A DNA stretch of 64,000 nt, from the NCBI GenBank assembly GCA_043733345.1, contig JAYTGQ010000391.1, positions 757-64,756 of the forward strand. The letters run 5' to 3'. Under the pieces are notes generated by a model. The model saw only the letters and a program-made list of their open reading frames with translations, searched no databases and was not told the origin of the DNA. The DNA comes from Schlesneria sp. Lineage in GTDB: Bacteria; Planctomycetota; Planctomycetia; Planctomycetales; Planctomycetaceae. Positions within the stretch are counted from its first letter, which is position 1. Each line of letters begins with the position of its first letter. Of this stretch, positions 34,321 through 51,373 are shown piece by piece. The position numbers and the translations under genes were made by a program.

Positions 34321-34356
34321 GCTCGGAAACCTCTCACTTTGTGCCGCGTGAGGGAT

Positions 34357-35100: not shown

Positions 35101-35916
35101 ATGACTCGGTATCGCCTGAATTTCAAGCGGGCTTCGAGCCTGCTGGCGATCGCCAGCGCCATGGCTATTACGTCGGCATTCGCACGGGAACCCGCCGTGC
35201 CGGAAGCCAAGCCGATCAACAAGGGGCAGGCGGTACGTGTCCAAGGGCAGCCAGAGCCAGCCGCAACGGAGACGAGATCAGTCAACAGAGGCCCGGCAAC
35301 TCAAGCCCATTCCGAGTCCGCCGTGATTCCCGAATGTCTGGAAAAGCTGAACCTCTCGGCTCAGCAGCAAGATCAAGTCAAGGGGATCGTTCACAATTAC
35401 GACGGCTCGCTCCGCGTCGTCTGGACGCAATTTAGCGACCGCTACATGCAGGCGATCTGCATGGAGACCGCGTTGATGGCTGCCATTGAGGACAACCTGA
35501 CCGAAGCGCAACGGCAGCAAGTGCGCAATCAGCGTCGCGTGACTGCTCAGCATGAGAAGGCCATGGCGGCAACGAGTACCAAGGTGAATCAGGCAAAGGT
35601 CAAGCCGAATGAGGAAACCACCAAGCCTGTCGATGCTGCCGAGGAAGGGATTGCTGCTGCTGGCATATCGCTCACCGACGAGCAGGAAACTGCGGCCGAC
35701 AGGGTTCAAGAAAAGTATCGCTCTCAACTGCGGTCACTGAACCGTGACATTCAAGGTCTCCATACTCGGTTGGTTTCACTGGAAGCCGACAAACTGACGG
35801 AGATCGAAAAGGTTCTCACGAAGGATCAGCTTTCGCAGCTGCGTATAAACCGACAGAACGCTCCTGTCGCACCAAAAGTGGCGAGCAGCCAAGCCGAGCC
35901 GACGAAGGCCGAGTAA
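35101..35916 (+). CDS. Secreted Spy/CpxP-like helical protein
   Basis: Signal peptide (LLAIASAMAITSAFA); LNLSAQQQDQV, NLTEAQRQQV and VLTKDQLSQL LTxxQ-type repeats; GGAG RBS before ATG. Confidence 0.7.
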   Translation: MTRYRLNFKRASSLLAIASAMAITSAFAREPAVPEAKPINKGQAVRVQGQPEPAATETRSVNRGPATQAHSESAVIPECLEKLNLSAQQQDQVKGIVHNYDGSLRVVWTQFSDRYMQAICMETALMAAIEDNLTEAQRQQVRNQRRVTAQHEKAMAATSTKVNQAKVKPNEETTKPVDAAEEGIAAAGISLTDEQETAADRVQEKYRSQLRSLNRDIQGLHTRLVSLEADKLTEIEKVLTKDQLSQLRINRQNAPVAPKVASSQAEPTKAE

Positions 35917-36016
35917 CACTTTCCCGCTCTCGTGGCACGGGCCACCGCAAGGTGCCCGTGCCACTTTGAGAGTGTTCGACCAACTTCAACCGTGATGGAT
36001 TCACAAGGAACAAATA

Positions 36017-36406
36017 ATGACACGTATACTTGGCTTGTCGGCACTCGTCATTGGCCTGCTCGCGGCGGCGGTGCCGCAGAATAATGCTCATGCCCAAACA
36101 ATCTCCATCGGTCGGGGTGGGGTGCAATACAATGGGTATGGACAAGGCTACTACGGTGGATACGGACGAGGATATCGCGGTTACGGGCAAGACTACGGCG
36201 GCTGGCACAGCCCCCGAATTCAATCTTATTCTGGTTACGGAAACGGCCCTTATGGATACGGTTCGGGAAATATGTATCAGCAGTATAACGGTGGATACAG
36301 TTACGGAAATGGAACCTACTACGACGGGTACGGTAACTCAGGATATTACACTCAGCCTTACGCGCCCGTTTACCGTCCGTATGGATTCGGAGTTTACATC
36401 CAGTAG
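36017..36406 (+). CDS. Secreted Gly/Tyr-rich low-complexity protein
   Basis: Signal peptide ending AHA; repeated GYG/YNG tracts. Confidence 0.75.
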   Translation: MTRILGLSALVIGLLAAAVPQNNAHAQTISIGRGGVQYNGYGQGYYGGYGRGYRGYGQDYGGWHSPRIQSYSGYGNGPYGYGSGNMYQQYNGGYSYGNGTYYDGYGNSGYYTQPYAPVYRPYGFGVYIQ

Positions 36407-36829
36407 CCCAAGAAACATCTGCTGCAGCGATGATCGGCTGGGGCAAGTCGCGTGGCGAGACAACGCAGCCAGAAAGTGACTTTGAAATGTCATGCACGTC
36501 GTCGCTCGTTCCACATTTAATGAAAGATCGACGTGGGCGATTGCTGGATGCGCCTGCCGTCCACGGAATTGACTTTGGCCCACGATCACGAATTGGTTCA
36601 GCGAGTCGTGGTTCGACTGCGATGTCGGCTGGAGAGTTCGGTTCGTAACTTTATAAATGTCGGCGAGCGAAGACGGTTTGGTTCTGCAATGTGTGATCGA
36701 AATCTATTACGGCAAGCAAATGGCCCAAGAGGTCGTGATGGAAGTGTCGCCACTGTCGATCCTCGCAAATGATATCGAAGTCCAATGCTTTGCGTTGACA
36801 CGCCACGTAGTCTCTTAAGAGCGATGTTT

Positions 36830-37249
36830 ATGAATAACATAACGCTGAAAATGGCGCAGCAGATTGCCAATGCGACCAGTGCTTTAGAAGAGAAGCGAAC
36901 GGGGCACCAGCCTCATGCCGTGACGGTCGTTCTGAGCGAAGACATTTTGGTGGTCACACTGCACGAGGCTTTTTCTCCCGCCGAAAAGGAACTGGCCAAG
37001 ACGGTGGTTGGTGCCGTTCAAGTGGAGGATTATCACAAACAACTCTTCGCCAATTCCTCCGACCCGTTGCGACTCGAGATCAATCGTCTCAGTGGTCGGG
37101 TGGTGATGGAAGCCGATGCGGTCGTCGAGCCGGCGACGGGATCAGTCATACATGCCTTCTCGACCGGCCGCTTGATGCAGGTGTACCTGCTCACCAAGAA
37201 CATTTTTATGGAACCCGAAAGCGGGAATGAATTGCGTCCGCAGTCTTAA
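36830..37249 (+). CDS. DUF2294 (MpsC-like) family protein
   Basis: MAQQIA...RTGHQPHAVTVVLSEDILVVTLHEAFSPAEKEL...GRVV pattern; start uncertain (36785-36851). Confidence 0.75.
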   Translation: MNNITLKMAQQIANATSALEEKRTGHQPHAVTVVLSEDILVVTLHEAFSPAEKELAKTVVGAVQVEDYHKQLFANSSDPLRLEINRLSGRVVMEADAVVEPATGSVIHAFSTGRLMQVYLLTKNIFMEPESGNELRPQS

Positions 37250-37265
37250 GAAAGGATTCTCAGAC

Positions 37266-37496
37266 ATGTTGGTCTTAACGCGAAAGATTGAACAGGCCGT
37301 CGTTGTCGGTGACGCGGCGGACGTGGGGCGTTTGCTCAAAATCACGGTGCTTGAGATCGCGCGAGGGAGCGTGAGGCTGGGCTTTGAGGTCGATGCCAGC
37401 GTGCCCGTTCATCGTTGGGAAGTGTGGCAGCGAATCCGCGACGAGGATCCGACCGAGGGTTCGCCGGAAACTTTGGCGTCATTGGTTGTGCAGTAA
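37266..37496 (+). CDS. csrA: Carbon storage regulator CsrA family RNA-binding protein
   Basis: MLVLTRK...ITVLEI...VRLGFE...VPVHR-EV canonical CsrA pattern. Confidence 0.9.
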   Translation: MLVLTRKIEQAVVVGDAADVGRLLKITVLEIARGSVRLGFEVDASVPVHRWEVWQRIRDEDPTEGSPETLASLVVQ

Positions 37497-37600
37497 TGCT
37501 GGGGGCTGGTGCCTCTCAGGTGTTGTGGCTTGATGGCTCGTGCATTGCCACCGTTTGAACGCGGCACTCACGGTCATCCGAACAGAAGGGGAGAGCAATC

Positions 37601-37768
37601 ATGTTGAATTGGGCACTGACATTCTTAGTTGTGGCGCTGGTCGCCGCCGTATTTGGTTTTGGCGGCATCGCCGGTGAAGCCGCTTGGATCGCGAAGGTTT
37701 TGTTTGTCGTGTTCCTCGTCATGTTTCTCGTTTCGGCACTGACGGGACGCCGAACGCCGCTGGCATGA
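37601..37768 (+). CDS. DUF1328 small membrane protein (55 aa; not in ORF track)
   Basis: [47 protein letters not shown]; GGGGAG RBS. Confidence 0.92.
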
Positions 37769-37917
37769 CGAAGACCGCTGGCGTGATCGCGGATTGGCCG
37801 TCTCTCCGCGACCACATCGAACTCGCGAGCTGTCGAATGATTCTTGGAGGTCTGTTCCTCGCAGGAGTCTTGGCCCGCTGGGCCGTGTTTGAGTTTGCTC
37901 TAAAAGGAGTTTTGAAA

Positions 37918-38250
37918 ATGACTCGGAAAATGATCTCTCTGGCTGGTGTGGTGATTGCGGCGCTGAGTTTCGCCGTGGGCGGTTCCGATGTGGAAGCGCG
38001 ACATTGCCGCACCCACAGAAATCACTGCTGTCGGCAGTCCGTTAACAACGGGTGTCAGCAGAATTCCAACATTGGCTTCCGCAACAACGGCACGAATGGC
38101 AACTGCTGTCAGCAGTCTGGCAACAACGGCTACCAACAGACCAGCAATTATGCATCTGGGCAGATGACCTACGGCACGACGGAAGCTGCTGTGGGCGTGA
38201 GCCAGCCGGCTCCTCCTGTTGAATCCGCAGCCCCGGTTCCCGTCAATTGA
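37918..38250 (+). CDS. Secreted Cys/Asn/Gln-rich small protein
   Basis: AAGGAG RBS; signal peptide ending VEA; HCC/GC/NCC repeats. Confidence 0.7.
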   Translation: MTRKMISLAGVVIAALSFAVGGSDVEARHCRTHRNHCCRQSVNNGCQQNSNIGFRNNGTNGNCCQQSGNNGYQQTSNYASGQMTYGTTEAAVGVSQPAPPVESAAPVPVN

Positions 38251-38312
38251 TTTGAAGGCCGTCACGTCCAGACACCGACCGCCTACGGGCGGTCGGTGAG
38301 GAGGAGATTCAC

Positions 38313-39425
38313 ATGCGACGCATTGCGTTTTTATCGACATCCACGCTGGCACTGGTCGCGCTCTGTTTTGGTGCGAGCGAGGAGCCGGCGGCACTTAAAC
38401 CGGCCTCCCCCAAACCAGCCGTCAAGGCGGGCACTCCACCAGCAGCCAGTGCCGTGGTGAAGCCGTCCGAAAAGCCGGCGGCTCCACCAACCGATACGGC
38501 GAGAATAAAACCGAGCGCCAATGTTGCTGAGCAGAAGCCATCAACACGGCTGCCCACCAACGAACGCTCGAACGACGAAGTAGCCATCCGTCAAACCGGC
38601 GAGTCGTTCGTCAAGGCGTATTGCGCTGCGGACGCCAAGGCGATCGCGGCTCATTTCACGCCAGACGCCGAATATATTGACGAGCGGGGGAATGTCTATC
38701 AGGGCCGCGCAGAGATTGAAGCGGCGTTGACCGCTTGCTTCTCCAAAAACGTCGGTTGCCAGATCGAGATGGAGATTGACTCGATTCGTTTCATCAGTCC
38801 CGGCGTGGCAGTCGAGGATGGAACGACGACGGTCACGCCGACAGACGGTGAGGAGCCTGCCTATAGCCGCTACACCGCCGTCCATGTGAAGACCGATGGC
38901 AAGTGGCTCGCCGCCAGCGTGCGCGACCATGCTCCGAAGGGTCGTCGGCAGCATCGCACACAACTCCGGCAACTCGGGTGGCTCGAAGGGGAGTGGGTCG
39001 ATGAAGGTGACGATTCTGTGGTGTTCTTTTCGTGCGAGTCGATAGACAACGGCAACTTTTTGCTGCGCAAGTTCACGATTCAAGTCGCTGGACGTGAGGC
39101 CATGAGCGGCACACAGCGCATCGGCTGGGATTCGCTGACTGGCAAGCTGCGGGCGTGGATCTTCGACTCAGAAGGTGGCTATAGCGACGGCGTCTGGCAC
39201 CGCGACGACGAACGCTGGGTGCTCAAGTCCACCGGCGTGACGGCCGACGGCCAGACCGCATCGAGTACGAGCATCTATACGTTCGTGAACGACCACACGA
39301 TGACGTGGCAGTCCGTGGATCATGAGATCGCCGGCGTGCAGCTTCCCGACAGTGGACTGGTGACGATCGTGCGCCGGGCACCGATGCCGGAGTTGAACGA
39401 CAACCCTGTGTCGAGTTTGAAATGA
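38313..39425 (+). CDS. SgcJ/EcaC (SnoaL/NTF2-like, DUF4440) secreted protein
   Basis: Signal peptide; DAKAIAAHFTPDA...GRAEIE NTF2 motif; second domain LGWLEGEW...IGWD...IRAWIFDSEGG. Confidence 0.85.
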   Translation: MRRIAFLSTSTLALVALCFGASEEPAALKPASPKPAVKAGTPPAASAVVKPSEKPAAPPTDTARIKPSANVAEQKPSTRLPTNERSNDEVAIRQTGESFVKAYCAADAKAIAAHFTPDAEYIDERGNVYQGRAEIEAALTACFSKNVGCQIEMEIDSIRFISPGVAVEDGTTTVTPTDGEEPAYSRYTAVHVKTDGKWLAASVRDHAPKGRRQHRTQLRQLGWLEGEWVDEGDDSVVFFSCESIDNGNFLLRKFTIQVAGREAMSGTQRIGWDSLTGKLRAWIFDSEGGYSDGVWHRDDERWVLKSTGVTADGQTASSTSIYTFVNDHTMTWQSVDHEIAGVQLPDSGLVTIVRRAPMPELNDNPVSSLK

Positions 39426-39481
39426 ACCTCTCTCGCCCCGCGCACACGGCGCTTCGCGACAACTCGTTGGAGAACTGAATC

Positions 39482-41416
39482 ATGAACCGGAATCTTTGGA
39501 AAACGCTGTTCGCTTGCGGCCTCGCCGCATCACTTGGCTCGGCCGATCTGTTCGCTCGCGGCGGTACTGGAGGCGGTGGCGGTGGACATGCAGGTGGCGG
39601 CGGCGGAAATGCTGGCGGAGGAAATGCTGGCGGAGGACAAGGGGGCGGGCGGCAAGGTGGGGGCGGCGGAGCCAATGTTGGCGGTGGCGGCGGTGGTGGG
39701 AATGCTGGTGGTGGCGGTGAGGGACGAGGTGCTGGTGGCGGGCAACAACCTGGCGGAGGTGGCCGTGGTGGTTCGCCCTCCAATCCGGGTGGCGGAAACC
39801 AGCCGTCGATCAATCGTACTCCGTCGTTCAGTCAGCCAAGCCCCGGCGGCGGTCAGCCGCGAATTGCTCGTCCGCAGCAGGAGACACGTCCTCCACAATC
39901 GACGATTCGCCCCGGAGCGGGTGCAACGTTGGAACCGAATGCGGGACGAGTTCAACCGGGCGGCGGGAGAATTGGTACCGATCCTCCCGGCGTGTCGGGC
40001 AGAGTCAATGGGGGAGGCTCTGGCGCAGCCGGTCAACCTCGGGCAAACAATGGCCGAGTTCCGAACGGCAACCTCGGAGCCGGGGCACAACTGACCGGAG
40101 CAAACCAAGTACGGGTCGGCGGTCAGTCGCTCGGCGGCAATACCATCAATCTCAATAATCACACTGTCAATCTGGGCCATAACAATTATCAACCCGCTTT
40201 CCAGCGTCACACGCAATATCGCGGTTACTGGAACGGCAATTACGGTCGTGGATATGGCAGCGGCTTCGGTGGTGGATTTGGTTCCGGCTTGGGATTCGGA
40301 CTTGGTTCGAGCCTAGGTTACGGCCTCGGCGGATATGGATTCGGCGGTGGTTATGGAGGCTATGGCTGGGGAAATGGGTACGGCGGATATGGTGGCTACG
40401 GTGGCTATGGATATCGCCCGCTCGGTTGGGGACTGGGGGCTTGGGGACTGGGATCGCTGGCGTACAACAGCGGCTATCTGGGGTACTCGAATCCGTACTA
40501 CAATAACAGCTACGGCTCCTACGGGAACTACAACTATTCGCAGCCAATTCCAGTCGTCTATTACAACGCTCCGACGGTGACTGCGGCCAACACGACGACG
40601 TGCGAGCAAAGTTTGGACGACGCCATCGCGGCTTTCAAGCAGAACGATTACGACGTGGCGCTGGATCTCGTCAACAAGGGGCTGAACCAGTGTCCCGACG
40701 ATTCGGTGATGCACGAGTTCCGAGCATTGACTTTGTTTGCGAAGGGCGACTATCAGCAGGCGGCATCGACCGTTCACTCGGTACTGGCTGTCGGTCCAGG
40801 CTGGAACTGGACCACGCTCAGCAGCCTGTATCCGAGCGTCTCGATCTACACGACACAGCTCCGATCACTTGAAGCGTTCACAAACGCGCATCCGCAGGAC
40901 GGAGCCGCGCGGTTCCTGCTGGCTTACCATTATATGGCCGACGGATATCCCGACGCTTCCGAGCGACAGTTGCAGCAGGTTGTGAAGCTCGTTCCCAGCG
41001 ACCGCGTGGCGGCAGATGTATTGAAGATGGTCTCGAAGCCACCGGCCGATCAACCCGCGGACACCGGGCAACTTCCGACTCCGCAACCTCCGACCGATAC
41101 GACGCCAACTGCCGCGCCCACAGCTAAGCCGATCGACCCCGCAATGCTCATCGGCACATGGCAGGCCGTGCGTGATGACGGTTCGCAGTTCGAGTTGATC
41201 CTCAAGCAAGATGCGACCTTCCATTGGAAGTTCACTCAGAAGGGGACCGTTCAGGAGTTCGGCGGCACCTATACCGTCGAGGCGAATGTTCTGGCGCTGG
41301 AACGCAAGGACGGCGGCTCATTAATCGCGGGAGTGATCCCCAAGGATGCACAAGCATTCAACTTCAAACTGCTGGGTGCTCCCGAAGAAGACCCGGGCCT
41401 CAGCTTCAGCAAATAA
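39482..41416 (+). CDS. Secreted Gly-rich TPR protein
   Basis: Signal peptide, long Gly-rich tracts, TPR helices (AIAAFKQNDYDVAL...HEFRALTLFAKGDY), C-terminal lipocalin-like IGTW domain. Confidence 0.85.
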   Translation: MNRNLWKTLFACGLAASLGSADLFARGGTGGGGGGHAGGGGGNAGGGNAGGGQGGGRQGGGGGANVGGGGGGGNAGGGGEGRGAGGGQQPGGGGRGGSPSNPGGGNQPSINRTPSFSQPSPGGGQPRIARPQQETRPPQSTIRPGAGATLEPNAGRVQPGGGRIGTDPPGVSGRVNGGGSGAAGQPRANNGRVPNGNLGAGAQLTGANQVRVGGQSLGGNTINLNNHTVNLGHNNYQPAFQRHTQYRGYWNGNYGRGYGSGFGGGFGSGLGFGLGSSLGYGLGGYGFGGGYGGYGWGNGYGGYGGYGGYGYRPLGWGLGAWGLGSLAYNSGYLGYSNPYYNNSYGSYGNYNYSQPIPVVYYNAPTVTAANTTTCEQSLDDAIAAFKQNDYDVALDLVNKGLNQCPDDSVMHEFRALTLFAKGDYQQAASTVHSVLAVGPGWNWTTLSSLYPSVSIYTTQLRSLEAFTNAHPQDGAARFLLAYHYMADGYPDASERQLQQVVKLVPSDRVAADVLKMVSKPPADQPADTGQLPTPQPPTDTTPTAAPTAKPIDPAMLIGTWQAVRDDGSQFELILKQDATFHWKFTQKGTVQEFGGTYTVEANVLALERKDGGSLIAGVIPKDAQAFNFKLLGAPEEDPGLSFSK

Positions 41417-41454
41417 ACCAGCGGCCAAGCCGCATCTGGAAGGAGCCTTTCGAC

Positions 41455-41694
41455 ATGTTGAACATCAGTCTGCTGTCCCTGATCTGTGCTCTGGCGAGCG
41501 GCGTCTTCGGCTTCGGAGCCGATGCGCCGCCCGACTGGACCTGGGAGAAAGGCTCATTCTTTTTCTTCCTGCTGCTGGCGGCGGTCGCCTTCGTCGGAAG
41601 CACGATTCGCAGGCCGTCGCTCTTGTGGGAATTGCTGGAAGAATTCCAAGGCAAACGCATTCAACACCCTCATCAGGGCCAGCTCACGGATTGA
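41455..41694 (+). CDS. Divergent DUF1328-like membrane protein
   Basis: AAGGAG RBS; LICALASGVFGFGA...FFFFLLLAAVAF. Confidence 0.6.
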   Translation: MLNISLLSLICALASGVFGFGADAPPDWTWEKGSFFFFLLLAAVAFVGSTIRRPSLLWELLEEFQGKRIQHPHQGQLTD

Positions 41695-41788
41695 CTGACG
41701 AATCAACCGCATGGAGGACACCGCATGAAAAGTATTTAGCGTTTTGACTGTTTAGAACGATCGATCAATAACTCAAAAGGAACGCCCC

Positions 41789-42223
41789 ATGAAATATCTC
41801 CTGTTCGGAACACTCTGCGGAATGGCTTTGGGATGCAATCAAAACAATCCCCCGGCGTCCTCCACTACTTCGACGACAGTACCAGCAACCAAGATCACGG
41901 CGAACCGTCCCACAACAACGGAACCGATGGACCGGACCAACACCGGGGTCAACGTCCGCGACCGTGACAGCACGGCGAAGACGCCATTGGACCAAAACGA
42001 GAACAAGGCTGACATCGAAATCACCGCTGAAATCCGCAAGCGCGTCGTTGAAACGAAAATGTCCGTCAATGCGCACAACGTCAAGATCATCACCCAAAAC
42101 GGGATGGTCACGCTGCGCGGGCCGGTGAAGACGGAAGAGGAGAAGCGGACGATCGAACAAATCGCTCTCACCGCTGCGGGTACCGACAAGGTTGATAATC
42201 AATTGGAAGTCAATAACGACTAA
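41789..42223 (+). CDS. BON domain lipoprotein (OsmY-like)
   Basis: Lipobox ALGC; ADIEITAEIRK...VKIITQNGMVTLRGPV...VDNQLEV. Confidence 0.9.
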   Translation: MKYLLFGTLCGMALGCNQNNPPASSTTSTTVPATKITANRPTTTEPMDRTNTGVNVRDRDSTAKTPLDQNENKADIEITAEIRKRVVETKMSVNAHNVKIITQNGMVTLRGPVKTEEEKRTIEQIALTAAGTDKVDNQLEVNND

Positions 42224-42291
42224 ACGCAGTTGAAGCATCGTTTAAGTCAATTTCAAACCACGTTCATAACCACTTTCACAGGATTATAAAC

Positions 42292-42861
42292 ATGTCCACT
42301 TCAGTTTTTTGCGCGGCGACATCCGCTCAGGCCAACACGATCATTGCCGATTTGAAAGCGGCCGGATTCTCGGGGAACGACATCTCCGTATTGATGGCGG
42401 ACAAGAGCGGGACGCGAGACTTCGCGCATGACAACAGCACCAAGGCTCCGGAAGGTGCCGCAGCCGGAGTTGGAACCGGCGCATTAGTTGGCGGAGCCTT
42501 GGGCTGGCTGGCTGGCATCGGCGCGTTGGCCATTCCCGGACTTGGCCCCTTTATTGCTGCTGGTCCAATTATGGCCGCCCTAAGTGGTGCGGCGATCGTC
42601 GGTACGGTCGGCGGTCTGACGGGCGCTCTCGTCGGCATGGGCATCCCGGAATACGAAGCCAAGCAGTACGAGGGCAAAGTGAAATCCGGAAGCTCGCTCA
42701 TTTCCGTTCACTCCGAGGACAGTGCCGAGACGACGCGTGCCAAAGAAATCTTTCAGCGTGCCGGGGGCCAGGACATCAGCACGGGAGGCGAATGCGCGGT
42801 CCCGGCAACCGATCGTAAAAGCGCCGGTGCGTGCGCAGTGCCATCGACCAACCGTGTGTGA
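42292..42861 (+). CDS. General stress membrane protein (YflT/DUF3341-like, glycine zipper)
   Basis: LKAAGFSGNDISVL...GALVGGALGWLAGIGALAIPGLGPFIAAGP...GMGIPEYEAKQYE. Confidence 0.85.
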   Translation: MSTSVFCAATSAQANTIIADLKAAGFSGNDISVLMADKSGTRDFAHDNSTKAPEGAAAGVGTGALVGGALGWLAGIGALAIPGLGPFIAAGPIMAALSGAAIVGTVGGLTGALVGMGIPEYEAKQYEGKVKSGSSLISVHSEDSAETTRAKEIFQRAGGQDISTGGECAVPATDRKSAGACAVPSTNRV

Positions 42862-43003
42862 AACACAGAAATGCGTTTCCGCGACGAACGGCAACTCTTG
42901 GTGACATCTGTGCCACGAATGTCGGGAACAAGCAGCCACGTCAGCGTGCTGATCCTCGGATCGCTGGCGTGGTCCTTACTGAACTGGAACAACGGAACAT
43001 CAC

Positions 43004-43510: not shown

Positions 43511-43777
43511 GCCGTGATTGCATCAACTCAAGAAAAAGCGACAGTCCGATGTTCTATCAGCAGTACGCCAGTTCGCTCCCCTTGGGAGGCAGTGGTCCGG
43601 AAAGCAGACGCTTTATCGACTTGACGATCGACGCTGTCGCGATATTGTCTCAGACCAAGACTCGCGCGATGAATTGTTTTGATCGCGTACCAAGCGGCTC
43701 GAAGCTCGATCGATTTCGCGATCCAAAAGACCAATGCTGAGACGCACGCCAAGGCGACAGTTTTCTAAAGAATACAA

Positions 43778-43906
43778 ATGGACATTCTCACACAAACGGT
43801 CTTTCCACTGGCGGCGGCCGGTTATTCGCTGGCTTGGCTGCTAGCCGGCGGAGGCTTCTTTGGAGCGGTTGTTATCTTCGTCGTCATGAAGATGGTCGGA
43901 AATTAA
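43778..43906 (+). CDS. 42-aa membrane microprotein (not in ORF track)
   Basis: MDILTQTVFPLAAAGYSLAWLLAGGGFFGAVVIFVVMKMVGN; in-frame from ATG to TAA, in the operon direction. Confidence 0.7.
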   Translation: MDILTQTVFPLAAAGYSLAWLLAGGGFFGAVVIFVVMKMVGN

Positions 43907-43937
43907 CGAAACTTATAATGCCACACAGGAGATCAGC

Positions 43938-44453
43938 ATGATGGAAACGACACACGTGCATCACGAAGCTCCGGCTGTGACGCGGGAAGACTTGGTAGCT
44001 CTGCTGAACGAAGATCTCGCGGGCGAGTATCAGGCGATTATCTCGTATGTGATTTATTCACAGGTACTGAAGGGGGCGCAGTACATGAATATCGCCGCCG
44101 AGCTGGAACGGCACGCGGCGGAGGAGCTGGCGCACGCACTGATTATCGCCGGACAGATCGACTATCTGGGGGGGATGCCACTGGCGATTCCCGATCCGGT
44201 CGAAACGTCAGACAGGGCGGAGGACATGCTGTGGTTCGATTTGAAAAACGAAAACGCGACGATCGCCCGCTACCGGCAGCGAGTCCGCCAGTGTGAAGCC
44301 TTGGGTGAGTATGCCATCGCCGAACAGATTCGCGGCATTCTCGTTCAAGAACAGGATCATCAAGTCGCATTGGCGACGGCTCTCAGCGTGAAGGTTCCGA
44401 ATGTCACACAACTCGAAAATACTTCTTCACTCAAGCAAAGTCCGGCGAACTGA
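43938..44453 (+). CDS. Bacterioferritin-like ferritin domain protein
   Basis: LNEDLAGEYQAIISY...EELAHA...IDYLGG...ENATIARY...EQDH di-iron helices; CAGGAG RBS. Confidence 0.85.
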   Translation: MMETTHVHHEAPAVTREDLVALLNEDLAGEYQAIISYVIYSQVLKGAQYMNIAAELERHAAEELAHALIIAGQIDYLGGMPLAIPDPVETSDRAEDMLWFDLKNENATIARYRQRVRQCEALGEYAIAEQIRGILVQEQDHQVALATALSVKVPNVTQLENTSSLKQSPAN

Positions 44454-44535
44454 AACGTGTCGATTGCGGATTGTGGCCAGCTTCTGATGGAAGCGGATAC
44501 ACCGTGCCGCAGGTTCTCAAATAAAGGTCTTAAAG

Positions 44536-44721
44536 ATGAGGCGACTTATTGCAGCAGCTTTGATTGTCGGTATGGCTTCGATCGGCATGGCTGGATGCAC
44601 GGAGAAGAAGTCATCGACCAAGCAGGAGGTGAAGATCACGACGCCCGGCGGGACGACGACGATTACGACCGAGAAGGAAGTCAAGAAGACCGGCGACAAC
44701 CCACCGGCCACAACCCCTTGA
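44536..44721 (+). CDS. Small lipoprotein
   Basis: Lipobox MAGC; TTPGGTTTITTEKEVKKTGDNPP. Confidence 0.8.
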   Translation: MRRLIAAALIVGMASIGMAGCTEKKSSTKQEVKITTPGGTTTITTEKEVKKTGDNPPATTP

Positions 44722-44797
44722 ATCGGGTGCATTCTGACCGGCGCGTGTTGCGTGCGTGAGATGGCCCGAACACCTCTTCACAAAAAGGAATTGAGCA

Positions 44798-45277
44798 ATG
44801 TCGAATACAACTACGATGCCATGCAGCAATAAGCAAGAGTGGGCTCCGACAGTCGATAAGGCCAAGGAGGTCGCGGACAAAGCTAAAGAGACGGCTGCGT
44901 CTGTAGGTGAGCTGGCCAGTGATGCGGCTAGCGCAGTCGGCGCGATGGCGAGCAAGGCGGCCTGCGATGCCGGTTCGATGGCGAGTCAGGCAGCTTGTGA
45001 TGTCGGCAAGAGGGCGGACAACCTGACCGCCAGCGCGGGTGCTGGCATTCAGCAGTGGGGTGACAGACTCGGCAAGAACGCCCCGCACGAGGGTGTGCTG
45101 GGGAGTGCGTCTCAAGCGGTTGCCAAGGCCGTCAAGGATGGCGGCGAATATTTGGAGGATGCCAAGCTCAGTGGACTCACCGAGGACATCGTCAAGTTGG
45201 TGCGGAAGAACCCCATTCAGGCGCTTCTCATCGCGGTCGGTCTAGGGTGGTTCGCGGCCAGCAAACTGAAGAGTTGA
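44798..45277 (+). CDS. ElaB/YqjD-like (DUF883) membrane-anchored stress protein
   Basis: LEA-like Ala/Lys repeats and C-terminal VRKNPIQALLIAVGLGW anchor. Confidence 0.8.
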   Translation: MSNTTTMPCSNKQEWAPTVDKAKEVADKAKETAASVGELASDAASAVGAMASKAACDAGSMASQAACDVGKRADNLTASAGAGIQQWGDRLGKNAPHEGVLGSASQAVAKAVKDGGEYLEDAKLSGLTEDIVKLVRKNPIQALLIAVGLGWFAASKLKS

Positions 45278-45278
45278 G

Positions 45279-45420
45279 CCATTTCCACTGAAGTTGATTA
45301 TCCGTCGGAACAAACCGCCGCATCGCTGTTGAATGGCATCCTCGGCTATCTCCAGCACCTCGTCGAACAGCAGTTCCAATTGACGCGGCGGGAGGTTGAA
45401 ACTGAACCACCTGAGGTGGC
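45279..45420 (+). pseudogene. Phage-holin-like (YqjE/DUF1469) N-terminal remnant
   Basis: SEQTAASLLNGILGYLQHLVEQQFQLTRREVE matches the family N-helix; no start codon or TM region follows; expected position after ElaB. Confidence 0.55.
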
Positions 45421-45518
45421 TCAACGTCCTTTGTCGTGTAACGGCGATTCGCACCGTTATCTGGTTCGTCGCGATTGGACGGTTCTGGATGCGACACTTT
45501 TACTGAAGGAGATTAAAG

Positions 45519-46268
45519 GTGAAGAATTCATTCGCAAGTTTGGCAGTGATGATGATGGCAGCTTTGGTTGGCTGCACGCAGGGGACTCCCGGCGGGCCGG
45601 GAACGACCAACACGAACGCTCCGAAGCCGACATACGGGCAGGCCGACGACACGTTCAATCTGAGCGTTCCCGTGATGTCGTCCTCACTCCAACAGGGAGC
45701 GCAGGCGGAAGCCACCATCGGCATCAAGCGGGCCAAAAACTTCGACGAAGATGTCACACTCCTCTTCGCCGACGTGCCCCAGGGAGTGACGATCGAACCC
45801 GCCAGCCCGGTGATCAAACACGGCGACAAGGATGCGAAGATCACGTTCAAGGCTGAGGATGAAACTCCACTCGGAGATTTCAAAATCAAGGTCACAGGCC
45901 ACCCGACAAAGGGGGGCGACGCCCAGATCGACTTCAAACTCACTCTGGCCGCGAAGGACACCTTTACGTTGAGCGTGCCGCTACTATCGACTTCGCTCAA
46001 ACAGGGCGAGACGCAGACCGTCTCGATCGGCATCAAGCGAGATAAGAGCTTCAGTCAGGATGTGGCACTGACGTTCGGTGACCTGCCCACCGGCGTGGTG
46101 ATCGAGCCTTCTGCCCCGGTCATTAACCGCGGCGATGAGGAAGTACAGGTCACGCTCACAGCCGCGAACGACGCATCATTGGGGAACTTCACGATCAAGG
46201 TGACCGGCCATCCTGCGAAGGGAGCGGATGCCTTGAATGAACTCAAGCTCACCGTCACCAAAGAGTGA
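45519..46268 (+). CDS. Lipoprotein with two tandem Ig-like domains
   Basis: Lipobox LVGC; two ~100-aa repeats DTFxLSVP...IGIKRxKxFxxDVxLxF...GxFxIKVTGHPxKG. Confidence 0.85.
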   Translation: MKNSFASLAVMMMAALVGCTQGTPGGPGTTNTNAPKPTYGQADDTFNLSVPVMSSSLQQGAQAEATIGIKRAKNFDEDVTLLFADVPQGVTIEPASPVIKHGDKDAKITFKAEDETPLGDFKIKVTGHPTKGGDAQIDFKLTLAAKDTFTLSVPLLSTSLKQGETQTVSIGIKRDKSFSQDVALTFGDLPTGVVIEPSAPVINRGDEEVQVTLTAANDASLGNFTIKVTGHPAKGADALNELKLTVTKE

Positions 46269-46607
46269 CAGGCCACGCGCCCATAACTCTGAATCAATAG
46301 TGGAATAATGTGGAGGGCTCTCCGTTCTGACGGCACGTTTCCAGTTCGCTCCCTCTGGGAGACCGTGGTTCCATCGCCCATACATGAGCGACACCACAAC
46401 AGTCACTGCTGCGACACACGTCAACAACGGATCTCTCGCCCAACAGTTTCGAGGGCGTGCCGAACGCATGGAGCCTGAATCGCAAACACGATCCAGCAGC
46501 ACGCAGCGCGGACCAGATGCTCCGTCAGCCCGAGTGGGTCGGCGGACGACGAACGCATGTTGCTTCCGTTGGAAGGTCCAAACGCATTTGCAATGAAAGG
46601 CAAAGCT

Positions 46608-47183
46608 ATGTCTTACCGTATGTTCTCAATGGCGGCAGTGGCCGTGACGATGTTTGTGAGTTCACCCGCGTGGGCGGCCAAGGATGCCAAGGCCGAGAAG
46701 GATGTCACGCACGACGGCAAGGTCGTCAGTGTGAATGGCAATCAGTTGGTGATGAAGGGGAAGGCCGGCAAGGAACACACGCACACGCTGGCGGCGGATG
46801 CCAAAGTGACTTGCGACGGCGACGCCTGCAAAGCGGCCGACTTGAAGGCCGGGATGAAGATTCGCGTGACCACCAAGCACGATGACAAGAAGGTCGCCAC
46901 GCACGTCGAAGCGCTCGACAAGCACGAGACATTTGCGAACTCGCACGACGGCAAATTCGTCAGCATCGTCGATCACAAGCTGACGATGACAAATCACAAG
47001 GGGAAGGAACACACCCACATGCTGGCCGCCGACGCGACCATGACCTGCGACGGCAAGGCCTGCAAGATCGACCAGCTCAAGGCGGGGATGAAAATCCGCG
47101 TGACCACCGAGAAGGGCGAAGCGGGTAAGGCGACTCATGTGGAAGCCATCGACAAAGATGCCGAGTTCTCACAAGGGAACTGA
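46608..47183 (+). CDS. Secreted protein with two tandem OB-like repeats containing CDGxxC
   Basis: Signal peptide ending AWA; two repeats HDGKxVS...KEHTHxLAADAxxTCDGxACK...LKAGMKIRVTT. Confidence 0.8.
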   Translation: MSYRMFSMAAVAVTMFVSSPAWAAKDAKAEKDVTHDGKVVSVNGNQLVMKGKAGKEHTHTLAADAKVTCDGDACKAADLKAGMKIRVTTKHDDKKVATHVEALDKHETFANSHDGKFVSIVDHKLTMTNHKGKEHTHMLAADATMTCDGKACKIDQLKAGMKIRVTTEKGEAGKATHVEAIDKDAEFSQGN

Positions 47184-47351
47184 AGACACACGGGTGCCTA
47201 ACGCGTGTTACTAATGCAACGCGGGGCGCGGGTTCAAAGCCAGCGTCCCGCGTGCTTCGCCGACGAACTAAAACTGCGACATCGAAGCTTTCACCGTTGC
47301 GAACTGTTGTTCGCAACGACACAACGGACCTTCCCAGGAAAGGGAACAACC

Positions 47352-47516
47352 ATGGGCTTAATACTGCTGATCGTTCTGATATTGCTCCTCGCAGGCGGGT
47401 TGCCACGTTGGAATCACTCGCGCGATTGGGGCTATGGCCCGAGCGGCGGCTTGGGACTCGTGCTGGTGATCGTGCTGGTTCTGATTCTGCTGGGACACAT
47501 TCCTCGCGGCTTCTGA
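47352..47516 (+). CDS. DUF3309 family small membrane protein
   Basis: MGLILLIVLILLLAGGLPRWNHSRDWGYGPSGGLG. Confidence 0.92.
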   Translation: MGLILLIVLILLLAGGLPRWNHSRDWGYGPSGGLGLVLVIVLVLILLGHIPRGF

Positions 47517-47565
47517 CGAGCTGCGTGGCCACCAGGGCCAATGCCTGTTTGAAGCTGGGCAAGCT

Positions 47566-47666
47566 GTAGGGTGGGACCAGCGGCGCTTCGCCGCGCCAGC
47601 CCACCCTGATTTCCAGTGATTGCATGATGGTGGGCCGGCGCTCGAAGCGAGCTTGTCCCACCCTAC
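47566..47666. repeat. GTAG-type REP doublet
   Basis: GTAGGGTGGG...CCCACCC / GGTGGG...CCCACCCTAC; related arm at ~61472. Confidence 0.7.
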
Positions 47667-47826
47667 TTTGAAAAAGGCGCTGGCCCTGCGTGGCCGCATC
47701 GAGCCCTTGATTTTTCCGGTATCCACGGCGTTAACCGCTGGTGTTAGCCGGAGACGCCCGACCCCAACCATGCCGCTCATGAAAAACTTCAAGCTTCCCA
47801 TTTCTCGATCAATCAGGAATCCAACC

Positions 47827-48360
47827 ATGTCCAACACACACACGGTGGTTGCGGTCTTTCATACGCATGAACATGCCGAAGAGGCGATCCGTGACCTTCA
47901 AAAGGAGGGCTTCGATATGAAAACACTTTCAATCATGGGGAAGGATTACCACACGGAAGAGCATGTCGTCGGCTACTACAACACGGGCGACCGAATGCAG
48001 AGTTGGGGGCAGAACGGGGCCTTCTGGGGAGCGCTCTGGGGGACGCTGTTCGGTTCCGCGTTCTTCGTGCTGCCGGGCATTGGTCCGATGCTCATGGCCG
48101 GGCCATTCGTCGCCGTGATCGTCTCGGCATTGCAAGGTGCCACCGTGGTGGGAGGCATCGGTGTACTTGGCGGAGCACTGGCCAGCATCGGCATTCCCGA
48201 GAACAGCGTCGTGCAATACGAGGCCGAATTAAAGGTCGGCAAGTTCCTGCTGATCGTCCACGGGACACAAGAAGAAGTGGCTCGCGCACAACGATATTTC
48301 GATGCCGCAGCCTCGACCGTCACGACGCTGCACACCGTACCAGTCACGATGTCCGCGTAG
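47827..48360 (+). CDS. General stress protein (YflT/DUF1269-like)
   Basis: VVAVFHTHEHAEEAIRDLQKEGFDMKTLSIMGKDYHTEEHVVGYYNTGDRM...GIPENSVVQYE. Confidence 0.88.
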   Translation: MSNTHTVVAVFHTHEHAEEAIRDLQKEGFDMKTLSIMGKDYHTEEHVVGYYNTGDRMQSWGQNGAFWGALWGTLFGSAFFVLPGIGPMLMAGPFVAVIVSALQGATVVGGIGVLGGALASIGIPENSVVQYEAELKVGKFLLIVHGTQEEVARAQRYFDAAASTVTTLHTVPVTMSA

Positions 48361-48458
48361 CCTACTGCGACTCGGTTAATTTCAACGAACGGTAGCTGTT
48401 GGCGACATGCAGGTCGTCGCTCCAGCACAAACAGTTTTCACCTGCGCGAGCAGAAATC

Positions 48459-48779
48459 ATGATTACGAAGGCCGCCTATATCGAGCGACGACACACGTCG
48501 TTGAAGGCTTTGGATGTGGAGATCGCCAAGCTGACGGACTACGCGGAGGGGGCCACTCCGAATGCCGTCCGCCGGTACGACATGGCGATCCGTCGCCTAC
48601 AGCGCACACGCAACAAAGCTGCTCTCAGACTTCGAGAACTGCGCTCACTTCGAGGAGCAACGTGGGCGACGGAAGAGGCGACCGCGGGCGCAGAACATGC
48701 CTGGCGAGACCTGAGACACGCCGTACTCGTCGCGATTTCCGCGACCTACGATGAAGAGCGTGATTCGTCAATACAGTGA
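48459..48779 (+). CDS. Small coiled-coil stress-associated hypothetical protein
   Basis: AYIE...LDVEIAKL...LRELR...W...GAEHAW pattern typical of two-helix proteins in stress clusters. Confidence 0.65.
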   Translation: MITKAAYIERRHTSLKALDVEIAKLTDYAEGATPNAVRRYDMAIRRLQRTRNKAALRLRELRSLRGATWATEEATAGAEHAWRDLRHAVLVAISATYDEERDSSIQ

Positions 48780-48806
48780 CTTCAAAGCAAGCGAGGATGT
48801 CGTCTC

Positions 48807-49193
48807 ATGTCCATAAACGCAATTTCAGATGATGCTCAACAAGTGCCGGTCCTGAAAGGCCACACCATTGGCTTCGCCGATACACCAGCGGTCTGCGTGG
48901 CGATGGAGCAAGCACTCAACAAGGCGGGTTTTCCAGACGCTCGGATCTTGATGCTGCACGGTGCTGCCGAGATCCCTGCGCTGGAACGATTGATGGGAGG
49001 TTCTTCGTGGGGCGAAAGCGCAGAGAAGCTTTTAACGCAGGGAACGGCTGAGTTGCGCAGCGACCATTCGGTGGTCTGCGTTGAAGTTCAAAATGTAGAG
49101 CAGGCGGCGACCGTCGCTGCGATATCGACACAATGCGGCGTGCGGAGCATTTATCACTTTGGAGATTTCGTTGATACGCAACTGACGCCATGA
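48807..49193 (+). CDS. Hypothetical protein
   Basis: GAGG RBS; 128-aa globular-looking ORF in the operon direction. Confidence 0.65.
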   Translation: MSINAISDDAQQVPVLKGHTIGFADTPAVCVAMEQALNKAGFPDARILMLHGAAEIPALERLMGGSSWGESAEKLLTQGTAELRSDHSVVCVEVQNVEQAATVAAISTQCGVRSIYHFGDFVDTQLTP

Positions 49194-49277
49194 AGCAACC
49201 AACGGGTGCGGCAGATGGTCCCGTGTCGGCACACGGGACACCGCACTTTCCGCTGTTGACCACGAAAGAAATAAATC

Positions 49278-49487
49278 ATGAAGAAGCTATGCACCGTGCT
49301 GATCGTACTGGCGATTCTCGTCGTGGGCGTCGGCTTCTATCGAGGCTGGTTCGTTCTGTCGAGCAAGGGAAACTCCGCGAGTCACAAGGTCAACGTCAAT
49401 CTGACGGTGGACCAAGACAAAATGAAAGAGGATGGCGCGAAGCTGAAGGAAAAGACAAAGAAGCTAACGGGACAAACCCATGACTGA
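49278..49487 (+). CDS. Small single-TM protein
   Basis: N-terminal TM (VLIVLAILVVGVGFYRGWF) and VNLTVDQDKMKED tail. Confidence 0.75.
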   Translation: MKKLCTVLIVLAILVVGVGFYRGWFVLSSKGNSASHKVNVNLTVDQDKMKEDGAKLKEKTKKLTGQTHD

Positions 49488-49567
49488 CACCCTACGCCGA
49501 TCGCCTTCTTGAAGTCCGGCTCACAAAGCGAATCCGGACTTCGGTAATGAAGAAAGACTTTATAATC

Positions 49568-49876
49568 ATGACTGACTCGCAAGATTGTGGAATGGCAACG
49601 GACAAGGCACGCAAGCTGAAAAGCTTTTACATTCATCTCTTGGTGTTCGTGCTGGTGAACGCGGGGTTGCTCGCCATGAACAGTATCCGACAACCGGACA
49701 AAATGTGGTCTTATTGGGTGTTCCTCGGATGGGGTGCCGGGATTTTGCTTCATGCGACCAAAGTATTCTCCTGCAGTGTCTGCAATAAATGGTGGAGACG
49801 CAAAAACAACACGTTGGTAAAGGGGGCGAATTCCGAAGTGAGCACGCAGCCACAACCGTCCTCGATAACGAAGTAG
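49568..49876 (+). CDS. 2TM domain protein
   Basis: KLKSFYIHLLVFVLVN...WSYWVFLGWGAGILLHATKVF. Confidence 0.8.
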   Translation: MTDSQDCGMATDKARKLKSFYIHLLVFVLVNAGLLAMNSIRQPDKMWSYWVFLGWGAGILLHATKVFSCSVCNKWWRRKNNTLVKGANSEVSTQPQPSSITK

Positions 49877-49894
49877 AGGCCGTTTATAAAACGG

Positions 49895-50030
49895 AGCCGC
49901 AGTCACTTCTCGATTTACGGTGGAGTAGTCTGGCCCCCTTGGTCCGGACGAAATGCTCAACGGCGATTGCGAAGGGATACGTCTGGACCAAGGGTCCAGA
50001 CTACGAGCGCCGGAAAGTGATTGCGGCCCC
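49895..50030. repeat. Nested double-stem element, copy 1
   Basis: Outer stem GCCGCAGTCACTTC / GAAAGTGATTGCGGC; inner ~24-bp stem 49926-50003; second copy at 50945-51085. Confidence 0.75.
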
Positions 50031-50134
50031 GTCCCTGCGAGTACTGTCGGAAGAACGCGGTGACCTCGGTGGCGAGTCTCATAGCCGGGCACAAAATCAC
50101 GGGATTGAAGATCTGATTGAAAGCGAGCGGACAA

Positions 50135-50284
50135 ATGTTGTGGACCATTTTTGTAGTGCTGTTGATCCTGTGGGTATTGGGAGTGGTCACCTCCACCACG
50201 CTCGGGGGATTCATCCACCTGCTGCTCGTCATCGCCATCGCGGTGGTGTTGATCCGCATCATTCAGGGACGGCCACCGATGTAA
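50135..50284 (+). CDS. lmo0937-family small membrane protein (49 aa; not in ORF track)
   Basis: MLWTIFVVLLILWVLGVVTSTTLGGFIHLLLVIAIAVVLIRIIQGR. Confidence 0.92.
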   Translation: MLWTIFVVLLILWVLGVVTSTTLGGFIHLLLVIAIAVVLIRIIQGRPPM

Positions 50285-50351
50285 TCGCGGCCGCCTCACA
50301 CAACGCAACTCAACCAAGACAAGCCAGGCGTTTCTGGCGAAAGGCAAGCTC

Positions 50352-50771
50352 ATGTCGATCAAAGCGGGGGTGTGGATTGACCATCATAAAGCGGTCGTGG
50401 TCCTGATAAATGGGGGCGGGGAAGAGATCAAACAGATCGACTCCCACGTTGACAAGGTCTTTGCGTCGGCGGGTGGTCCGGAAATGCGGCACCCGAACCG
50501 GCCTGAAGGATTTATGCCCGAGGACAAGCAGGAAAATAAGTTCATGAACGAACTCAACACGTACTACGACGAGGTTCTCGCGTCCCTGGGTGACGTGGAT
50601 TCGCTGCTGATCCTCGGGCCTGGCGAAGCGAAGGGCGAGTTTCAGAAGCGTCTGAAGAGCAAGAAGTTTCCGGCGGAGCTCGTTGAGCTTGAGACGACAG
50701 ACAAGCTGTCGGATCGTCAGCTTGCGGCCAGAGTGCGTCAGCACTTTTGTGAGACGCCGAGCATCTCATGA
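50352..50771 (+). CDS. Host attachment / eRF1-related (baeRF-like) small protein
   Basis: GVWIDHHKAVVV...YYDEV...LILGPGEAKGEF...ETTDKLSDRQLAA. Confidence 0.8.
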   Translation: MSIKAGVWIDHHKAVVVLINGGGEEIKQIDSHVDKVFASAGGPEMRHPNRPEGFMPEDKQENKFMNELNTYYDEVLASLGDVDSLLILGPGEAKGEFQKRLKSKKFPAELVELETTDKLSDRQLAARVRQHFCETPSIS

Positions 50772-50944
50772 AGTGAGCGACAGCAACGAATCGACCCGTC
50801 GGAATGCAGCAACGAGAGGACGCGGGACTTCCCCAGTCTTGGTTCGCTGTTCGATAAACAGGGGCGCGTCCATTGCGGCTTGGCCAATAGTGACCTCGCC
50901 TCGATCCGCGCGGTTTGAGGACTGAATTCGCTTCGCTCAGCAAC

Positions 50945-51085
50945 GGGGCCGCAATCGCTTCCTAATTTTCAGTGACGTAATCTGGACCCCTTGGTCCGGA
51001 CGAAATGCTCGACAATAACGACGACTGCGAAGGGAAACGTCCGGATCAAGGGATCCAGACTACGAGTGGAAAATGATTGCGGCCA
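50945..51085. repeat. Nested double-stem element, copy 2
   Basis: GGCCGCAATCGCTTCC / GGAAAATGATTGCGGCC outer stem; inner stem 50978-51062 with G-C/G.U exchanges relative to copy 1. Confidence 0.75.
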
Positions 51086-51148
51086 CGAAGTCTTACCTCT
51101 GACAAGTCCAATGTCTGAGACAAGGATTGGTTGACTCCAAGGACAGGC

Positions 51149-51373
51149 ATGGGTGACTTGCCTCCCAAAATATCCCGCAGTGCCCAAGGCAACATCGTGC
51201 AGATCGAGCAGGAGTTCGCACGGCAGCGTTCCAAGGTGGACCGCCTGGGTGAAACGATCAGCCGTTGCGCCGGAAGCCTTGGCTTTGCGATCACTCACAT
51301 TTGTAGTGTTGTCGGTTGGCTGACGATCAATGCGGAACTGACCACACTTCGTCCGTTCGCCCCCTATTCATTT
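51149..51373 (+). pseudogene. DUF1003 membrane protein truncated by IS insertion
   Basis: IEQE...RQRSKVDRLGETISRCAGS...H...W..IN...PFAPYSF (family PFDPYPF) ends at the IS end GGGTGTAACC. Confidence 0.75.

Follow-up and report, generated by a model that had tools for sequence, protein, structure and literature searches.

How does a planctomycete control a compact block of small stress genes in which profile searches find no sigma factor among 29 open reading frames (ORFs)? The question is raised by a 64,000-nt stretch of Schlesneria sp. DNA (contig C391, positions 757-64756; hereafter the window) in a 7.45-Mb genome of 1007 contigs (genome label G000), where small genes of general-stress type are lined up in what we call the island. 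A sequence-only reading of this DNA, which had noticed the absence of a sigma factor as well, left the regulator as unknown. We revise this point because a novel pair of leader RNA copies heads the island, which also encodes a DUF2294-CsrA pair. The leader RNA may be the regulator that could not be found before, and the main addition of the present work is this structured RNA, which ties the island to a general-stress-type regulon across the genus.

The leader RNA surfaced when the regions 5' of the first island genes were aligned, which revealed a conserved terminator hairpin with conserved sequence upstream of it. A first hidden Markov model (HMM), built from three sequences, detected about 40 copies in the loci of relatives, which had been fetched around relatives of the DUF892 protein of the island, and five in this genome. 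The structural alignment comprised 35 copies. Two tandem copies stand at the island head, where the following features were located, with scores from the covariance model (CM) R1:

34659-34687, plus strand: sigma70-like promoter of copy 1, with -35 TCGCTA, a 17-nt spacer and -10 TAGCAT, a positionally conserved pattern
34730-34848, plus strand: leader RNA copy 1, with the box UUCGGAUGAC, a bulged hairpin, a 17-bp terminator and a U-run; 95.4 bits, E = 4e-26
34853-34968, plus strand: leader RNA copy 2, tandem and promoterless, with terminator and U-run, 85 nt 5' of the start of the first island gene (g01); 115.8 bits, E = 4e-32

The RNA is about 115 nt long and is laid out as a single-stranded 5' box, a three-tier bulged hairpin, the 17-bp terminator and the U-run. 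The box is invariant and reads UCGGAnGA (UUCGGAnG in the alignment). The copies have diverged to a mean column identity of 65%, and standard pairs fill 94.9% of the pair cells in the 35-copy alignment, compared to 30-46% in slid controls. Double changes occurred at 23 of the 31 pairs, and the covariation score was 0.477 against about 0.1. In the strand test, G.U outnumbered A.C by 102 to 18 (p=2e-15), and therefore the pairing has been selected on this strand, as RNA. The non-tandem copies share a promoter consensus of -35 TTGC(A/T)(T/A), a spacer of 16-17 nt and -10 TAnnAT. It was found in 17 of 34 such copies, compared to 1.7 +/- 1.3 in shuffles, and the end of its -10 element lies at a fixed 47-53 nt 5' of the box. 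The best downstream ORF was co-oriented with the RNA in all 54 assessable copies (p=1e-16), at a distance of 19-254 nt from the U-run to the start codon. In three loci (L013, L018 and L024) the U-run ends about 26 nt ahead of the gene for MpsC (DUF2294), and there is therefore no room for another promoter between them.

The leader RNA is a new structured RNA, previously undescribed and well supported. Searches of Rfam 15 with the whole region and with the RNA alone, using gathering-free thresholds, returned no family for it and only spurious hairpin matches. Two published motifs were considered and rejected. The yjbJ motif of Streptococcus (PMC11109978) is unrelated. The Rhodopirellula-1 motif is a planctomycete hairpin with a conserved base, clustered in genomes and located 5' of short hypothetical genes, with 36 copies in R. 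baltica and the consensus AACAA..UGCACCGGAGC-loop-GCCCGGUGA..CGUU (PMC2864571). It resembles the leader RNA in being a clustered planctomycete motif 5' of genes, but it has another consensus and no terminator. An HMM of the published alignment (nhmmer) had no match in the window and six elsewhere in the genome (on C981, C165, C378, C652, C86 and C816), and the two are separate families, both present in this genome. The genes downstream of the six matches look heterogeneous.

Within the genus, the leader RNA was found in 22 of 31 genomes with 1-27 copies each, often clustered, and across the phylum 11 of 401 genomes, from several families, had it under a strict filter. The tandem pair recurs in L005, L001, L002, G401, G406, G425 and G431. 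Across the loci, the RNA leads the genes for the Spy-like protein of g01, which is kept 3' of it in at least six genomes, for MpsC-CsrA, for the lipoprotein g17, and for CsbD, DUF892, BON, ElaB-like and YflT proteins. DUF3309, DUF5670, HPF-like, DUF2934-like and small ferritin-like genes are led in the same way, and in genome G427 the list extends to 3xBON, tandem Usp, PRC-barrel, DUF4142, KaiC, receiver domains, a PAS sensor, an ice-binding-like protein, MCRA and an FtsX permease. Because the same RNA stands before stress-type genes at so many places per genome, it defines a regulon, of which the present island is the densest part. Three further copies in this genome lie outside the window: one before arsD-arsA, one before a PepSY-like gene and one near a contig end. 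The first of these (C406:12406-12519, minus strand) lies directly upstream of the arsenite resistance genes, and the targets of the RNA are therefore wider than the classic general-stress proteins. A separate stretch of G427 (contig C304, 31-95 kb) contains at least nine copies in about 65 kb, each before a stress-type gene, and is far larger than the RNA-punctuated region of the window. The genes led there include those for a Spy-like protein, tandem Usp, DUF3309, DUF4142, a receiver domain, a PRC-barrel and the g15 microprotein.

The presence of the RNA is coupled to that of DUF2294, which was found in 9 of the 11 RNA-positive genomes of the phylum but in only 22 of the 390 RNA-negative ones (p=1.5e-9). 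In a common layout, a minus-strand gene for canonical DUF2294 is followed by the promoter and RNA on the plus strand and then by an island-type DUF2294 gene, also on the plus strand. A CsrA gene came next wherever this was checked (L013, L018 and L021). In the window the divergent canonical copy has been lost. The island CsrA aligns to PDB chains 5z38, 1y00 and 2jpp with E of about 1e-6, and its RNA-binding core (MLVLTRK and VHR) is conserved. For DUF2294 there was no relative in the PDB by sequence, and its AlphaFold2 model, with a predicted local distance difference test score (pLDDT) of 83, matched no solved fold (best E 0.14, template modelling score <0.4). The box contains GGAnGA, which resembles the recognition core of CsrA/RsmE. 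Only one GGA of the RNA is invariant (columns 10-12 of the alignment), and the others vary. As in CsrA systems with antagonists (CsrB/RsmZ, FliW), a CsrA with its RNA-binding core is accompanied by a small protein partner and an adjoining RNA that contains GGA. However, the partner is DUF2294 and not FliW, and the RNA, placed as a cis-leader, conserves one GGA only, whereas the many loop GGAs of a CsrB/Rsm-type sponge are absent from it. An enrichment of CsrA-like ACA-GGA at ribosome-binding sites was weak (CA..GGA in 25% vs 9.5%), with poor start calls from the automatic procedure as a confounder, and we discarded it. In the literature we found no described general-stress regulon or regulator of planctomycetes, and nothing relevant on DUF2294 or on the leader RNA.

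We consider it probable that the leader RNA is an ON-type attenuator, which would gate a general-stress regulon by constitutive initiation, default termination and effector-stabilised antitermination. Of 35 predicted nascent folds, 33 show the UCGG of the box paired with CCGA, a part of the invariant GUAAGCCGAC, across a 3x3 internal loop of purines. This segment serves as the 5' strand of the terminator, for which the energies range from -26 to -41 kcal/mol. The sigma70-like promoter at 34659-34687 would drive both tandem copies with constitutive initiation, and the very stable terminator of each copy would by default leave a short terminated transcript. The box and CCGA in the nascent RNA would close a long purine-bulged hairpin, with the 5' terminator strand built into it. 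Once stabilised by an effector, this antiterminator could let polymerase pass on into g01 and the genes that follow, and the tandem copies would sharpen the switch. As effectors we would consider the DUF2294 proteins and CsrA, whose genes lie beside the RNA in most genomes, or perhaps a small ligand or ion. The inner genes would then be controlled from the island head, which we infer because they are co-oriented and the regions between them lack intrinsic terminators. It is most likely, judging from these sequence features, that expression of the island is gated after transcription initiation and not by a dedicated sigma factor.

Several observations weigh against the attenuator. The helix between the box and CCGA is 95.7% paired across the alignment, but its four base pairs are invariant and so give no covariation support, and it is far weaker than the terminator. 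In the window the RNA occurs only at the head of the island, and about 25 other genes have no copy. Some of the genes led by it (arsD-arsA, MCRA and the FtsX permease) are not classic stress genes. Moreover, the predicted fold of DUF2294 gives no hint of RNA binding, and a single invariant GGA is a poor fit for a CsrA dimer.

The general-stress regulons governed by RpoS in E. coli, SigB in B. subtilis and EcfG in alphaproteobacteria hold YciF/DUF892, OsmY/BON, ElaB-YqjE, YtjA/DUF1328, CsbD, YflT, Dps/ferritin, Usp, PRC-barrel, DUF4142 and HPF. The same families occur in the island or among the genes led by the RNA. However, those regulons are scattered and defined by sigma promoters, whereas in the present case some 29 genes follow one another on a single strand, and what is shared is a leader RNA that ends in a terminator. 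In its order of promoter, bulged hairpin overlapping the 5' strand of the terminator, and gene, the leader resembles terminator riboswitches (nhaA-I/DUF1646) and the ribonucleic antiterminator (RAT) leaders of BglG/LicT, and it shares with them the tandem copies and a possible regulator gene directly 3'. It differs in that no Rfam family and no CAT-PRD or ANTAR protein was identified for it, and in that the genes it leads span a broad stress regulon and not a single pathway. More tentatively, and with some doubt on our part, the RNA might represent a new class of riboswitch or protein-dependent antiterminator, which in Planctomycetaceae would be the master switch for general stress, in the role that RpoS, SigB and EcfG promoters play in other phyla, and would have an ion, a second messenger or a complex of DUF2294 and CsrA as its signal. 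In any case the locus offers a testable handle on stress control in planctomycetes, in that the copies of one structured RNA with a covariance model list the regulon of each genome. If the attenuator reading is true, this would be a rare instance of a whole general-stress regulon wired through a common leader RNA and not a sigma promoter, and DUF2294/MpsC, a family with no assigned role, would gain a candidate function beside CsrA.

The RNA might instead be mainly a trans-acting small RNA (sRNA), either a decoy of CsrA or a base-pairing regulator, so that its place before stress genes would reflect co-regulation and not attenuation. This would fit its own promoter, the strong terminator with a U-tail, the single-stranded 5' box with its invariant GGAnGA, and the genomic coupling to csrA and DUF2294, and a terminated leader would accumulate under either model. 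Against this, the best downstream gene is co-oriented in every assessable copy, the U-run is a mere 26-100 nt away from the start codon, an interval that contains no promoter where MpsC follows, and the tandem copies are promoterless. Known CsrA sponges have many GGAs against the single conserved one here, and up to 27 divergent copies per genome would be unusual for an sRNA gene. We therefore regard a principal role in trans as improbable. The RNA could also be derived from a selfish repeat of the type of miniature inverted-repeat transposable elements (MITEs) or repetitive extragenic palindromes (REPs), with a terminator arising by chance, as its copy number, intergenic position and palindromic form in a MITE-rich genome might suggest. 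But its pairing is strand-specific, compensatory changes have been kept in spite of the divergence, and the orientation to downstream genes is strict. The partner genes are functionally coherent, with an orthologous place before MpsC-CsrA across families, and no terminal inverted repeats were seen. A selfish origin is thus hardly credible.

Alternatively, an unlinked conventional regulator could be responsible, either an alternative sigma factor or a two-component/sigma54 system, and the RNA would only insulate or fine-tune. This would fit the window, in which an RNA copy is missing from most of the island genes, and contig C505, on which paralogs of the ferritin, lipoprotein, CsbD and Ig-like (immunoglobulin-like) lipoprotein genes lie next to those for a PAS hybrid kinase, a sigma54 activator of the NtrC type and an Hpt protein. 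C505 is linked to the island by paralogy only, however, and the promoter searches argued against such a regulator: the intergenic regions of the island shared no two-block motif, and sigma54-type and EcfG-type patterns were neither enriched nor conserved in it. The EcfG pattern GGAAC-N16-17-CGTT had three matches in the window, compared to 3.7 expected, and none at an island promoter position. These results make an unlinked regulator unlikely in our view, and the attenuator at the head of the island remains the reading that we prefer. By a strict pattern, no internal promoters of the type that precedes the RNA were found within the island, and a generic scan of the region for sigma70 promoters and terminators was uninformative. 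C505 itself (13.2 kb) is a second, smaller stress cluster. It contains a ferritin (83% to g16), a lipoprotein (77% to g17), a g20-like gene, CsbD, an Ig-like lipoprotein and a cytochrome-c-peroxidase-like gene, which adjoin the multi-PAS hybrid histidine kinase, the Hpt protein and the activator, and it has no copy of the leader RNA.

The island behind the RNA was delimited by calling ORFs with a codon score and assigning families by Pfam and NCBIfam profile searches. In its gene list below, loci refer to those fetched from relatives, TM stands for transmembrane, and single small values are those of the profile matches:

35053-35916, plus strand: g01, secreted Spy/CpxP-like protein, weak (LTXXQ 0.013, Metal_resist 0.017)
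36017-36406, plus strand: g02, secreted Gly/Tyr-rich protein, whose G427 homolog is led by the RNA
36533-36818, plus strand: g03, BON-like and frameshifted, in two frames here and in L005, intact with 97 aa in L001 and L002
36824-37249, plus strand: g04, DUF2294/MpsC of the island type, Pfam 3e-15
37263-37496, plus strand: g05, CsrA homolog (MLVLTRK...VHRWEV), Pfam 6.5e-15, 55.3 bits against a cut-off of 27
37601-37768, plus strand: g06, DUF1328 membrane microprotein, Pfam 1.3e-16
37765-38250, plus strand: g07, orphan TM/Q,N-rich protein, kept in 4 loci
38313-39425, plus strand: g08, secreted DUF4440/SnoaL-like protein, Pfam 7e-14, 11 loci
39482-41416, plus strand: g09, secreted Gly-rich/TPR protein, Pfam TPR, 9 loci
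41455-41694, plus strand: g10, DUF1328-like, weak (NCBIfam PRK13682 2e-5, under the cut-off)
41789-42223, plus strand: g11, BON lipoprotein, Pfam 6.5e-14, 23 loci
42292-42861, plus strand: g12, YflT-like protein with glycine-zipper, Pfam 2e-5, just under the cut-off, 29 loci
43004-43510, plus strand: g13, DUF892 (YciF-like), Pfam 4e-60, sole copy in the genome
43549-43906, plus strand: g14 (63 aa) and g15 (42-aa TM microprotein), g15 in 17 loci and led by the RNA in G427
43938-44453, plus strand: g16, ferritin-like, Pfam 4e-19
44536-44721, plus strand: g17, 61-aa lipoprotein, 12 loci, led by the RNA in L018 and L019
44798-45277, plus strand: g18, ElaB/YqjD-like tail-anchored protein with no Pfam match, led by the RNA in L003 and L012
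45290-45518, plus strand: remnant of a YqjE-like gene, by comparison with L005, L013 and L018
45519-46268, plus strand: g19, duplicated Ig-like lipoprotein
46557-47183, plus strand: g20, secreted two-repeat protein, weakly ExtJ-like (NCBIfam 8e-9, under the cut-off), 13 loci
47352-47516, plus strand: g21, DUF3309, Pfam 6e-23, led by the RNA in G162 and G427
47827-48360, plus strand: g22, YflT and DUF1269-like membrane protein, Pfam 8e-11
48459-48779, plus strand: g23, sll1863-family stress response protein, NCBIfam 1.2e-12, over the cut-off, missed by the sequence-only reading
48807-49487, plus strand: g24 (128 aa) and g25 (69-aa TM), orphans, from gene calls and locus comparison
49547-49876, plus strand: g26, 2TM-domain protein, Pfam 1.2e-18
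50135-50284, plus strand: g27, DUF5670 (lmo0937-like) microprotein, Pfam 6e-14, led by the RNA in G269
50352-50771, plus strand: g28, 139-aa protein, weak baeRF_family10 match (0.08), 5 loci
51131-51406, plus strand: g29, truncated DUF1003 fragment, Pfam 1.6e-3, profile positions 2-36 of 103

The sequence-only reading had counted about 28 small genes on one strand over about 16 kb, and the gene calls agreed with this, giving 29 plus-strand ORFs within 35053-51406 and no convincing minus-strand gene. The array is about 83% coding with a median gap of 79 nt between genes, and its one-strand layout is far from chance. Profiles of Pfam or NCBIfam backed 16 of the 29 ORFs, and for 24 of the 29 proteins there was no paralog elsewhere in the genome. 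The families named before were largely recovered (DUF2294, CsrA, DUF1328, BON, two YflT, YciF/DUF892, ferritin, DUF3309, 2TM and lmo0937-like), with weak support for the Spy-like, ElaB-like and host-attachment assignments. DUF1003 is indeed broken, and only the part of the profile listed above was matched. The physical clustering of general-stress-type families is likewise confirmed by the gene calls and family matches. Hallmark families are DUF892, BON, YflT, DUF1328 and ferritin in the window, CsbD in L005, L013 and C505, and Usp, PRC, DUF4142 and 3xBON in G427.

We searched all 29 proteins by tblastn against the 80 fetched loci, and found the genes linked and co-oriented, so that one refuting condition named by the sequence-only reading, genes dispersed in relatives, does not hold. 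In L005, from a metagenome-assembled genome (MAG) of Schlesneria, 27 of the 29 genes are colinear, and the DNA is colinear with window positions 34607-50773 at 82-91% identity. The DUF892 protein of the window is 96% identical to its counterpart in a Schlesneria MAG. Between 15 and 19 genes are colinear in L001, L002, L013, L018, L024, G401, G406, G425 and G431, some of these loci being limited by their contigs. A more distant group (L013, L018, L019, L020 and L024) keeps 15-17 genes on one strand with small rearrangements, and a BON-YflT-DUF892 core occurs in about 25 loci of Planctomycetaceae and Pirellulaceae. Among the fetched loci, Gemmataceae and other phyla have DUF892 alone. The island is also modular within the genus: G401 has the head and 17 genes without g10-g15, and G406 lacks only DUF892 at that position. 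The use of DUF892 as a marker of the island (5 of 15 congeners) was therefore misleading, since both genomes possess the island yet lack DUF892 at this place.

Compared to L005, the window has undergone some decay. A deletion of about 1.2 kb took the YqjE-like gene, of which the remnant is left, a 224-aa gene and CsbD, and in addition the cytochrome-c-peroxidase-like gene is gone and g03 is frameshifted. At the corresponding position L005, L013 and L018 have all retained the YqjE-like gene (Phage_holin_3_6, 5e-13), a gene of 212-224 aa and CsbD. The order of ElaB-like g18 followed by the YqjE-like remnant is the order of yqjD-yqjE in E. coli. The best explanation of the array is a lineage-conserved yet modular general-stress cluster, of osmotic, desiccation and stationary-phase type, in Schlesneria-like Planctomycetaceae, and not a self-mobile element. 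Even taken alone, this conservative part brings together in one compact place about 29 small proteins of the stress and membrane kind, many of them orphans that remain linked across a bacterial family.

The borders of the island are marked by the following features, the right one being a remnant of a repeat or insertion sequence (IS):

33324-33902, minus strand: C-terminal fragment of a class III fructose-1,6-bisphosphatase, the last ~140 of 639 profile positions, at the left edge and adjoining MITE-dense DNA
51373-51870, unstranded: repeat or IS remnant, right border, with copies 86-94% identical on C659, C855, C747, C260 and C97

The right end thus agrees with the IS remnant described before, whose repeat is present on at least five other contigs. 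The hsdS-like remnant said to lie at the left start was not verified, and MITE-rich DNA and the fructose-1,6-bisphosphatase fragment were found there. Positions 33850-34730 gave about 1000 BLAST matches in the genome.

The island had also been called possibly mobile, and the evidence on this points both ways. In G401 it lies in another chromosomal context, where its neighbours have their counterparts on C96, C5 and C593 of the present genome, with 85-89% identity, while the island itself is more diverged, at 66-78%. Synteny around the left-flank gene of the window is lost even in congeners, and a search for an empty site beside this gene in G401, G404, G409 and G412 found nothing common except the gene itself. 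Because of the different context in G401, the greater divergence of the island than of its flanks, and the lost synteny of the flank gene, we describe the island as a relocatable or exchangeable locus without visible mobility machinery. A horizontally mobile genomic island, a question separate from that of regulation, would explain these differences and the MITE and IS remnants at both ends. We consider it unlikely, however. Profile searches of the island and flank proteins matched no integrase or transposase family, no tRNA was found, and the two border repeats belong to different families, so that there is no common flanking repeat. The G+C content is only slightly below that of the flanks, similarity falls off gradually with phylogenetic distance, and gene order is kept across the family. 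Possibly the small stress proteins simply evolve faster than core genes.

Some palindromic elements were found between the island genes. A nested element of about 130-150 nt occurs twice in the window (49877-50116 and 50772-51130), and about 12-15 more copies on other contigs, with 72-86% identity, give the family the behaviour of a REP/MITE-like repeat. A long and near-perfect GC-rich hairpin lies between DUF3309 and the second YflT gene (47561-47679), and its sole Rfam match was a spurious one to snaR-A. Other, conserved GC-rich hairpins, which lack U-tracts, lie at 35932-35964, 38273-38298 and 47219-47253. These hairpins may be mRNA-stabilising or processing elements, and the first of them is kept in L002, L005 and L014.

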